64,000 nucleotides of DNA from an uncultured Chloroflexia bacterium (GTDB lineage Bacteria > Chloroflexota > Limnocylindria > Limnocylindrales > CSP1-4), in the NCBI GenBank assembly GCA_963716025.1, contig CAVQSY010000023.1:7876-71875 (forward strand). The letters are read 5' to 3'. Below, piece after piece: positions 304 to 13,216 of this stretch (position 1 is the stretch's first letter; the number at the start of each line of letters is the position of its first letter). The translations under genes were made by a program, and so were the position numbers. The notes below the pieces were generated by a model. It did no database searches. It was not told the DNA's origin and was given only the letters and a program-made list of their open reading frames with translations.

Positions 304-1262
304 ATGATGACTCCTCACGAATCCATTCTAAGCATCTCCGCCGCGATGAATGCGGCAGTCATCGGCCAGCAGACGGTGGTCGAGCGATTGCTGATCGCAT
401 TGTTGGCCGACGGCAACGTGCTGATGGAAGGCTTGCCCGGCACCGCCAAGACACGTTCGATCAAGACCCTGTCCGGACTGATCGAAGGCGTGAATTCGCC
501 GCGTTCAGTTCACGCCTGATCTGTTGCCCTCCGACGTGACCGGCTCGGAGATCTATCGCGAGCAGACCGCGACGTTCGAGTTCCAGCCAGGACCGCTATT
601 CGGCAATTTGGTGTTGGCCGACGAGATCAATCGGGCCCCGGCCAAAGTCCAGGCCGCGCTGCTCGAGGCGATGGAGGAACGGCAGGTGACGTGTTGCCGG
701 CAAGACGCACAAGTTACCGGACTTGTTTCTAGTTCTCGCGCCACGCAAAATCCAATCGAACAAGAGGGGACGTATCCGCTACCGGAGGCGCAGATGGATC
801 GATTCTTGGTATACGTCCAAGTGCCCTACCCGCTGCGGAGAATGAGCTCGCGATCCTGCGTCTGGTCCGCAGTGAAGAATCGGCAACCAGCGGCCAACCG
901 GAGCCGGTTTCGCAGCAGACGATCTTTGCCGCCCGCCGGGAAGATTGGGTCGATGCATGTCGCCGATGCCGAACGCTACCTTGTAGACCTGGTCATTGCC
1001 ACGCGGCATCCAAAGCGTTACGGGGATCTCGCCAAATGGATTCAGCTGGGCGCCACCGCGAGCCACGATTGCCTTAGACGCTCGCCGCACGGGCTCGCGC
1101 TGGCTACGGGGCAACGATTTTGTTTCGCCAGAAGACATACAAGCCGTCGCACCCGCTTGCTTGTCCCATCGCATTCACTTGTCCTACGAAGCCGAGGCCG
1201 CCGGAAGGACGCGCGAGGATGTCGTGGACGAGGTACTGCAACGCGTCGCGGTGACTGCATGA
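304..1262 (+). pseudogene. MoxR-family AAA+ ATPase, reading frame broken repeatedly (pseudogene or error-ridden sequence)
   Basis: Walker A GLPGTAKT lies in the 304 [55 protein letters not shown] and [20 protein letters not shown] lie in a second frame. [11 protein letters not shown] and the C-terminal [31 protein letters not shown] lie in other frames. I count at least 6 frame changes. Confidence 0.85.
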
Positions 1263-1270
1263 TTTCGGTA

Positions 1271-1435
1271 GCAGAGCTCGCGCAGCGTTTGGGTTGGTTT
1301 GTTGTTGCGGAACTCGCGTAGAGTTTCGGCTCTGGTTTGTTGTAGAGTTTCGGCTCTGAATCGAAAGTCTGCGCGACTTCCGCTACGATAATGCGCCTGG
1401 CCGAAAGTCTGCCGCAACTTCCGCTACGATAATGC
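1271..1435. repeat. Two adjacent short tandem-repeat arrays in the MoxR-DUF58 spacer
   Basis: A ~37-bp unit (GCrGArCTCGCGyAGnGTTTnGGnTnGGTTTGTTGT) is present about 2.4 times at 1271-1358. A ~34-bp unit (CGAAAGTCTGCnnnnACTTCCGCTACGATAATGC) is present twice, at 1362-1394 and 1402-1435. Confidence 0.7.
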
Positions 1436-1475
1436 AACGGGACGAGGTCTTTAATGCCCAGCACGACTGCCACTC

Positions 1476-11700: not shown

Positions 11701-12179
11701 ATGGGCGCCAACGACGCCCAGACGATCAAGGCGCTGCTCGAGGCCGACGCGTGGCCGGGGCCGAGCCTGGTCATCGCCTACTCCACCTGCATCGCGCACG
11801 GCATCGACATGGCGAAGTCGATGACGCCACCAGAAGGATGCCGTGAAGTCCGGCTACTGGCCGCTCTACCGCTTCCAGCCCAGCGAGGTCGAGGACGGGA
11901 CGCCGTTCAAGCTCGACAGCGCCAAGCCGTCGATGCCCGATCCGGGACTTCGTGGCCACCGAGACCCGGTTCGCCATCCTCGAGCGCACCGACCCGGAGC
12001 GGGCCGCCGAGCTCGCGGAGCTCATCCAGGCCGACGCCGACGAGCGATGGCGCTACTACGAGCAGCTGGCCGGCATGCACCGGAGCGTCCCGCACCTCCA
12101 GGCGGCCGATGCGGACACGGAGGCCGTGGCCGAGCCGCCCGCGCGGCGACCAACGGCAACGGCGCGAGAAGGGAGCTGA
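8729..12179 (+). pseudogene. nifJ: Pyruvate:ferredoxin (flavodoxin) oxidoreductase, NifJ/YdbK type; 5'-truncated and heavily frameshifted
   Basis: Recognisable sequence starts at [39 protein letters not shown], roughly residue 60-70 of full-length enzymes. Later motifs include FFGLGSDGTVGANK, the two ferredoxin clusters CIDCGKCAMVCPH and CTGCGVCVDVCP, FEFSGACAGCGETPY, the TPP site [15 protein letters not shown] and SGYWPLYRF. I trace at least 13 frame changes. No start codon is present. Confidence 0.9.
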
Positions 12180-12182
12180 GGC

Positions 12183-13216
12183 GTGACCCCCGATCTGCGG
12201 ACCCGCTATCTGGGGCTCGATCTTCGGTCCCCGATCGTCGCGTCGTCCACGCCGCTCACCGGCGACCCGTCGTCGGCAAGCAGCTCGAGGACGCCGGCGT
12301 CGGGGCCGTCGTCCTGCCGTCGCTGTTCGAGGAGGAGATCCTCCACGACGAGATCGAGCTGTCGCGGGCCCTCGACCAGGGCACCGAGCAGTTCGCCGAG
12401 GCGCTGGACTACTTCCCGGCGTCAGGCCGAGTTCCAGGGCGTCGGCGACCGGTACCTCGCCCGGCTCGAGAAGACCAAGAAGGCGGTCTGCGATCCCGGT
12501 CGATCGCCAGCCTCAACGCCGACTCGACCGGCGGCTGGGTGCGCTACGCGCAGGCTGATGCAGGACGCCGGGGCCGACGCCCTGGAGTCTCAACCTGTAC
12601 CACGTGGCCGCGGACCCGCGAGCTCGGGTCGTCGCACCGCGAGCAGGCGGACCTCGACCTCGTGGCCGCGGTCCGCGCCGCGATCACGCATCCCGCTCGC
12701 CGTCAAGCTCAGCCCCTACTACTCGGCCATGGCGAACTTCGCCGGGCGGGTCGTCGAGGCCGGCGCCGACGGCCTCGTGCTGTTCAACCGCTTCTACCAG
12801 CCGGACCTCGACCTCGACACGTTCGACGTCGTCACCAAGGTCTCGCTGAGCCACCCCTCGGAGCTGCGGCTGCCGCTCCGGTGGATCGCCATCCTGCGGC
12901 CGCAGCTGGGCGTCGGGACGGGCCTCGCGGCCACGTCGGGCATCCACCGGGCACCGACGCCGTCAAGGCGCTCGCCGTCGGCGCGGACGTGGTGATGATG
13001 GCCTCGGCGATCCTGCGCCACGGCGCGGCCCAGGTCAGCACCCGTCGACCGGCGAGCTGCGTCGCCTGGATGGAGGAGCGCGAGTACGAGTCGGTCGCCC
13101 AGCTTCGTGGGTCCGCAACCGCGGCCACCGTCGCCAACCCGACGGCGTTCGAGCGGGCCAACTACCTCAAGACGCTCCACTCCTGGTCCGCACCGAGCGA
13201 GCTGGCCGGCGTCTAG
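12183..13216 (+). pseudogene. Dihydroorotate-dehydrogenase-like protein (PFOR-associated), heavily frameshifted
   Basis: There is a GTG start after GAAGGGAG. The fragments YLGLDLRSPIVASSTPLTGD, LEDAGVGAVVLPSLFEEEI, IPLAVKLSPYYSAMANFAGRVVEAGADGLVLFNRFYQPD and AVGADVVMMASAILRHG are spread over all three frames, with about 9 frame changes. Confidence 0.75.

Follow-up and report, generated by a model that had tools for sequence, protein, structure and literature searches.

Within a 64,000-nucleotide stretch of DNA (the window) from an uncultured Chloroflexia bacterium, two neighboring sets of genes lie broken into many short reading frames: a Bat (aerotolerance) operon, and a pair comprising a pyruvate:ferredoxin oxidoreductase (PFOR) gene and a gene for a DHOD-like flavoenzyme. 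We confirmed that these frame breaks, roughly 50 over the first 13 kb, genuinely stand in the deposited sequence. Almost certainly they reflect assembly errors at the poorly supported, chimeric end of a metagenome contig and not gene decay, and we therefore present them as a data-quality warning, not as biology. The explanation that we hold with high confidence combines a chimeric contig terminus with blocks of unpolished, long-read-type consensus error, and in the real organisms the genes are most likely intact.

In outline, at least 16.6 kb of Pirellulaceae-like planctomycete DNA, with a guanine-plus-cytosine (GC) content of 55%, would have been fused between positions 8727 and 8728 of the window to a Limnocylindrales-like Chloroflexota genome of 71% GC, the join cutting PFOR after codon 66. 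Two blocks, one foreign (304-6031) and one native (9776 to ~13400), would carry single- or double-base insertions and deletions (indels) at 0.4-0.8%, together with ~1% extra substitutions. Being insertion-dominated and untied to homopolymers, such errors would be those of a consensus drawn from very few noisy long reads, or of long-read sequence missed by short-read polishing. Low read depth is inferred, as are the platform used for sequencing and whichever assembler step may lie behind the join.

The junction within PFOR

The window corresponds to positions 7876-71875 of contig C23 in a 90-contig, 3.2 Mb assembly (G000) of ~71% GC. The interval under study, 304-13216, spans a junction at 8727/8728 where composition and taxonomy both change, and we observed the anatomy of this junction directly. 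A GC profile gave 52-58% both for window positions up to 8.7 kb and for the 7.9 kb of contig that precede the window. Across the junction GC rises from ~0.50 to 0.70 between 8.5 and 8.9 kb, with values of 0.45-0.53 before 8.6 kb and of at least 0.70 after 8.8 kb. When we compared the window by blastn with 20 kb loci from three genomes of the same genus (G008, G015, and G006), homology began at 8728/8729 in all three, and none was found to the left of 8728. Right of the join, identity to G008 was 30/30 and 30/30; left of it, the values were 9/30, 9/30, and 4/30, the level of random sequence. The DNA that lies upstream of the junction in G008, consisting of the 5' end of PFOR and 8 kb of conserved upstream sequence, has no counterpart anywhere in this assembly. 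Each of the 18 same-genus genomes has PFOR itself, as an open frame of 513-1734 amino acids (aa) that exceeds 1,000 aa in 16 of them. An abrupt switch in composition, a coincident switch in taxonomy, and a breakpoint inside a gene that is intact in relatives, three signs of a chimeric contig, were found at this join.

The two sides of the junction differ in taxonomic affiliation. Gene content in the first 8,727 positions of the window is Planctomycetota/Pirellulaceae-like, and a GC3 frame tracker, our own 7-state hidden Markov model of GC at third codon positions that counts stop-less frame switches on the same strand, called C23:1-16596 as non-native. Open reading frames (ORFs) of at least 300 codons cover only 18% of the 16.6 kb foreign block, whereas the figure is 74-95% for eight control loci with a comparable GC. 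Among GTDB species genomes, the closest relatives of the foreign BatA were those of a Verrucomicrobiota metagenome-assembled genome (MAG) and of Stieleria mannarensis (67-70% identity); among 5.8 billion proteins, the best matches reached 76% identity, and the named ones came from Pirellulaceae, Rubripirellula, Allorhodopirellula, and Rhodopirellula. On the native side, the relatives of PFOR are those of Limnocylindrales/Chloroflexota, and positions 8728-63999 are colinear with G008 (55 kb of synteny). An earlier note on this DNA had missed that the left 8.7 kb is foreign and joined inside PFOR; because it is foreign, half of the "cluster" of breaks described there belongs to another organism.

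Like chimeric metagenome contigs in general, this one switches its GC, codon usage, and best-hit phylum abruptly at a single base; a conserved gene is broken, the foreign part is terminal, and several other contigs of the bin have foreign-looking ends. It differs from them in the relatively few errors on either side of the join.

Along the 55 kb alignment with G008, identity was 98-100% at 8728-9227, 38700-39000, and 41700-44500 and 73-92% elsewhere. The patches of near identity could be traces of recent interspecies recombination, or of consensus cross-contamination by a co-occurring G008-like population.

Frame breaks in two dense blocks

Breaks are concentrated in two dense blocks, at 304-6031 (~3.7 breaks/kb) and from 9776 to ~13400 (~8 breaks/kb). 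The frame tracker recorded 16 switches in 9.7-13.4 kb versus 7 in 13.4-64 kb, and the other ~50 kb of the window hold about 3 to 7 breaks, in line with the ~5 counted in the earlier note. Clustering of this degree far exceeds chance (binomial P ~1e-26), so that its extreme character, as claimed in that note, is real; the picture of a single cluster did not survive, since two dense blocks are separated by 3.7 kb of nearly clean sequence. The edges of the dense blocks ignore gene borders; in PFOR, a clean first 1 kb precedes shattered sequence. A quality boundary had been proposed near 13.2 kb, and the right-hand limit of the native block indeed lies between 13059, the position of the last polarized indel, and ~13400.

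For the foreign half, we aligned operon proteins from Stieleria and Verrucomicrobiota to the window DNA with a frameshift-aware dynamic program of our own. This gave 20 to 26 frame breaks in the seven Bat-operon genes, and Uma2 adds 1 (21 to 27 in all), which upholds an earlier count of about 20. As a negative control, the same program was run reciprocally on two intact loci, where 14 alignments yielded 2 calls, each at an N terminus that aligned weakly. We dropped plain tblastn as a means of counting breaks: it found 2 in MoxR instead of 6, an undercount that arises because its high-scoring segment pairs run through short out-of-frame patches. The six MoxR breaks fell at identical positions with both references, and the frame-corrected product is 80% identical to Stieleria MoxR. 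BatA, the longest intact piece of which is 3136-3891, has a called product of 243 aa, compared to ~344-345 aa in almost all of more than 100 homologue clusters. Uma2 matches 2-140 of the 172 profile positions, its C-terminal part carrying on in the next frame.

The gene identities read earlier from the sequence were confirmed by Pfam (AAA_3/MoxR, DUF58, DUF4381, VWA, TPR, DUF7939, DUF308, Uma2, POR_N/PFOR_II, TPP_enzyme_C, and Fer4). In gene order (MoxR-DUF58-DUF4381-BatA-BatB-BatC-BatD) and Pfam content, the operon resembles that of Stieleria mannarensis and two Verrucomicrobiota loci (L013 and L012). It differs from these in that each gene is frame-broken, save for the neighboring DUF308 gene, and in that it sits in a foreign block and not in the bin's host genome. 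At its far end, C23:1-2910 (L031), the contig opens within one apparent long gene distributed over four overlapping ORFs (2..1174, 1039..2025, 1872..2393, and 2197..2910), whose translations look like those of a putative large planctomycete-type dehydrogenase/HEAT/cytochrome-c protein. Read from the ORF list, the foreign block would appear to be frame-broken from its very start, at C23:1.

For the native half, we built a four-way MAFFT DNA alignment of the window with G008, G015, and G006. It revealed 27 indels of 1-2 nt private to the window, between 9776 and 13059 (18 insertions and 9 deletions), somewhat more than the ~22 frame changes previously counted in this gene pair. The privacy of these indels is a direct observation: the three relatives agree with one another at 27 of 27 sites. 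The frame tracker shifts frame at the same coordinates, and the first 1,048 nt of native DNA contain just one in-frame 3-nt difference. Relative to the intact PFOR of G008 (1218 aa), codons 1-66 are missing from the window copy, whose POR_N match starts only at profile position 49, the first 48 being absent. A nifJ-type PFOR is a single chain of ~1,200 aa that bears POR_N, PFOR_II, POR, Fer4, and TPP_enzyme_C. In the window, pieces of POR_N, PFOR_II, Fer4, and TPP_enzyme_C follow in order but in different frames across the region, whereas the G008 orthologue is complete. Both motifs quoted in the earlier note are present, in separate ORFs of the PFOR region. For the DHOD-like gene, the DHO_dh match was made on the intact G008 orthologue.

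Five small indels at 13310-13402, seen against G008 only, extend the native block, and the tracker switches at 13338/13389. Small indels within 13229-13402 and at 13761, 14096, and 14180 were likewise seen against G008 only, and some may be G008 errors; they are unpolarizable because G015 and G006 lack that gene. Among the 7 tracker switches beyond the dense blocks, three or four match single-base indels relative to G008, as near 16379, 41344, and 63666. Such isolated indels (also at 17171 and 58912), lying in an otherwise clean 50 kb, are probably the ~5 scattered frameshifts of the earlier note. Counts of gaps that are not multiples of 3 in pairwise blastn alignments to G008 proved too noisy to map breaks along the window, with 0-10/kb everywhere at ~85% identity, and served only to corroborate tracker switches.

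Table 1. Features of the window and low-GC blocks elsewhere in the assembly. Coordinates are window positions unless a contig is named.
Feature	Coordinates	Strand	Details	Basis
Foreign block	1..8727 (C23:1-16602)		55% GC; reaches contig start; ORFs fragmented throughout	GC profile, homology
MoxR-type AAA+ ATPase	304..1253	+	6 frame breaks: ~493-499, 692, 738, 833, 943, 1055	Pfam AAA_3, bpMoxR
DUF58	1491..2375	+	4-6 frame breaks: ~1830, 1856, 1932, 2255, possibly 2286, 2312	Pfam, alignment
DUF4381	2378..2845	+	1-2 frame breaks: 2747, possibly 2814	Pfam, alignment
BatA (VWA)	2852..3888	+	2-4 frame breaks: 3077, 3126, possibly 2966, 3022	Pfam, alignment
BatB (VWA)	3854..4814	+	4-5 frame breaks: ~4017, 4027-4030, 4344, 4435, possibly 3899	Alignment
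BatC (TPR)	4812..5451	+	1 frame break: ~5268	Pfam, alignment
BatD	5469..6850	+	2 frame breaks: ~5988, 6025-6031	Pfam DUF7939, alignment
DUF308 (HdeD-like) membrane protein	7120..7713	+	ORF uninterrupted	Pfam
Uma2 family	7996..8611	+	1 frame break: ~8460	Pfam Uma2
Foreign/native junction	8727..8728		Inside PFOR coding sequence	Identity profile, homology start in three relatives
PFOR (nifJ type)	8728..12186	+	Without first 66 codons; 16 private 1-2 nt indels, 9776-12164	
DHOD-like flavoenzyme (DHO_dh family)	12183..13216	+	11 private 1-2 nt indels, 12272-13059	
Error-dense native block	9776..13402		27 polarized indels to 13059 plus five small ones at 13310-13402	
Further low-GC blocks (7; 6 at a contig end)	C8:146139-148542		39.5% GC	
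	C43:1-2718			
	C46:53388-57889			
	C49:6634-8241			
	C54:1-3126			
	C71:101754-130378		59-60% GC	
	C78:1752-4999			

Consensus error weighed against gene decay

Once the frame was corrected, the 2101 Bat codons and the 1152 PFOR codons held no in-frame stop within genes; the sole stop, at 289, precedes the MoxR start. Frame-corrected PFOR shares 92% aa identity with G008. In a relative-rate test, the ratio of window-private to G008-private substitutions did not differ between the shifted part (98:64) and the clean part (14:9). By codon position, private substitutions are distributed 25/22/51 in the window and 10/7/47 in G008, leaving an excess of ~30 (~1%) at positions 1 and 2. Bacterial indel:substitution ratios are typically ~1:10, at which ~30 extra substitutions predict ~3 indels; 27 were seen (Poisson P of at least 27, ~1e-15), so that the observed ratio is ~1:1. 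The idea that the substitutions are alignment artifacts beside indels was rejected, as 22 of the 98 lie within 10 nt of an indel, against ~17% expected.

Bacterial mutation is deletion-biased. The excess of insertions in the native block (18:9) runs opposite to this bias and fits the insertion-rich profile of PacBio, and calls in the foreign block, made by frameshift-aware alignment, are also mostly of the insertion type (~16, versus ~5 of the deletion type). PacBio continuous long reads (CLR) are reported to contain ~8% insertions versus 3% deletions (bioRxiv 10.1101/2021.08.23.457338). Although several shifts had earlier been placed in short runs of G or C, this did not bear out: a same-base run was altered by 9 of the 27 indels, whereas chance alone would give 43-51%, and no run involved was longer than 3. 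With runs not enriched, we rejected a homopolymer explanation; neither a repair-deficient mutator nor homopolymer-type sequencing error matches the run statistics.

Frameshift errors of long-read (meta)genome assemblies are the target of proovframe (bioRxiv 10.1101/2021.08.23.457338) and have been discussed elsewhere (PMC9262707, PMC7423617). Our breaks share with them the splitting of genes by 1-2 nt indels into short ORFs that still match the family consensus, the lack of a matching nonsense or missense load, blocks that ignore gene borders and grow denser at contig ends, and a reduced MAG completeness. Nanopore indels are homopolymer-derived (PMC9262707), unlike those seen here, and the dominance of insertions suits PacBio CLR better. 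A further difference is that error-rich blocks are interspersed with clean ones at a scale of 3-6 kb, suggesting partial polishing or hybrid gap filling. Taken by their signs, the breaks show three that point to consensus error, namely private indels, a stop-free conserved frame that is restored on correction, and gene-border-ignoring blocks that recur near contig ends; those of pseudogenes, namely nonsense lesions with proportionate substitutions and a deletion bias among small indels, were not found.

Genuine, indel-biased decay, for example after loss of a repair function, would make true pseudogenes of PFOR, the DHOD-like gene, and an acquired Bat operon in the living organism; we consider it very improbable indeed. 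The indels do stand in the deposited sequence, and the surplus of ~30 changes at the first two codon positions is as expected under relaxed selection, but more than 3,200 corrected codons hold no nonsense codon within genes, the indel:substitution ratio is far from ~1:10, and the insertion bias comes without a homopolymer bias, although repair-deficient mutators hit homopolymers. Decay would also have had to leave the first 1 kb of PFOR clean while shattering the rest, heedless of gene borders, and to repeat the same pattern assembly-wide, including in a putative class II ribonucleotide-reductase-like gene and in second copies of valS and ileS. Pseudogene-rich bacteria, such as Mycobacterium leprae and recent host-restricted pathogens, display a mixture of nonsense mutations, deletions, and insertion-sequence insertions, are biased toward deletion, and have elevated substitution rates. 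The window resembles them in having many disrupted genes side by side, and differs in showing small indels only, an insertion bias, no stops within genes, and ~8 breaks/kb within single genes. Were the join and the lesions both real, at least 16.6 kb of planctomycete DNA, including the Bat operon, would have entered PFOR in a Limnocylindrales-like Chloroflexota population by interphylum transfer, with the insert and the adjacent native genes decaying through insertion-biased, homopolymer-independent indels. To our knowledge no such indel process exists in bacterial mutation spectra, and we consider this the least credible of the readings, with next to no chance of being correct.

The frameshifts could be technical and the junction nonetheless real, if a planctomycete-derived island with the Bat operon had inserted into the PFOR gene of this Chloroflexota population and the contig ended inside it. 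Both sides of the join are comparatively clean, no adapter marks it, and assemblies often break within islands, which makes an island at a contig end conceivable; yet the foreign block retains a GC 15 points lower with no sign of amelioration, the other flank is missing from the assembly, and contig ends are exactly where six more low-GC blocks lie. Neither an integrase, a repeat, nor a mobile-element gene was noticed at the join in a reading of the ORFs, which was not a dedicated test, and the target gene is one that all congeners keep, nearly always as a long open frame. We judge a real island to be quite improbable. An artifact of another kind, in which two related, co-occurring populations (one G000-like and one G008-like) were collapsed into one consensus, would dispense with low depth and overlaps with the explanation that we prefer. 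It draws on the mosaic of identity to G008, which could equally be real recombination. Private substitutions are not clustered around indels, as the proportion within 10 nt given above attests, and the foreign planctomycete block has errors of the same kind without any such close relative; collapse of populations is therefore unlikely, if less so than the island or decay.

Several observations weigh against a chimeric, poorly polished contig end as well. A search for adapters at the junction (SMRTbell, Oxford Nanopore Technologies, and Nextera) returned nothing meaningful, and a shared k-mer was looked for at the join and not found. Only one frame break falls in the 3.7 kb around the junction (6031-9775), which is unexpected if the join rests on a single noisy read. 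Because the sequence flanking the join is clean, a single raw read as its carrier is disfavored, and partial short-read polishing or hybrid gap filling is hinted at. No near-identical intact copy of the foreign block was found, either among GTDB species genomes (at most 70% aa identity) or among 5.8 billion proteins (at most 76%); since the closest copy shares only 76%, the foreign-block indels were called from distant proteins, by protein guidance only, and are unpolarized. Finally, the excess of substitutions at nonsynonymous positions in the window is also what relaxed selection would produce. Set against these points, every indirect test, from the private indels and the lack of stops to the insertion excess and the genome-wide blocks, favored technical indel error over pseudogenization, as the earlier note had proposed.

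Assembly-wide pattern and consequences

The same pattern was observed directly across the genome. The frame tracker counted 1,296 stop-less frame switches, each a candidate shift, in the assembly (0.40/kb), compared to 0/kb, 0.11/kb, and 0.30/kb in the loci of G006, G008, and G015, respectively. The switches are overdispersed (variance/mean of 4.5 in 5-kb bins), and their density is 0.69/kb within 2.5 kb of a contig end versus ~0.25/kb beyond 20 kb, a difference of ~2.7-fold. Shifts of +1 outnumber those of -1 (838 versus 458), again an excess of the insertion type. Within C82:3249-7745, the frame cycles F0>F1>F2 every 30-120 nt through a putative ABC-transporter-like (MacB/HlyD-like) region, which indicates serial +1 insertions. 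The larger interval C82:1-7745 is among the densest error blocks and includes, as read from translated fragments, a putative class II ribonucleotide-reductase-like gene with 3 frame changes.

Eight blocks of the assembly have a GC below 61%, and seven of the eight adjoin a contig end (P ~1e-8). ORFs in the seven that lie outside the window's own foreign block are more fragmented than those of control loci, and these blocks are probably further chimeric termini or contaminant DNA. Shattered copies of valS and ileS, at C68:31254-33615 and 42540-44923, are second copies, the intact ones lying at C50:145852-148497 and C8:124604-127303. The contig that carries the shattered copies, C68, probably has low coverage and came into this bin from another organism. 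An argument for artifact from damage to essential single-copy genes is weakened accordingly, because lesions in second copies offer no proof by lethality.

The value of these results lies in data hygiene. The contig, and probably much of the 90-contig bin, supplies truncated protein fragments to public collections, of which the 243-aa "BatA," with homologues of ~345 aa, is one example. A planctomycete Bat operon attached to a Chloroflexota genome could be misread as interphylum transfer, as loss of PFOR, or as pseudogene-rich decay. Users of this genome should mask C23:1-16602 and the other contig-terminal low-GC blocks, and should treat the frame-broken blocks as unpolished. Technical faults lower the estimates of gene content and of completeness, the latter 69.7% for this bin (CheckM-type). 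Such error blocks may also exist in other MAGs of the genus: at 184-537 of a G015 locus (L010, on G015:C7), near its start, four stop-less frame switches fall within 350 nt.

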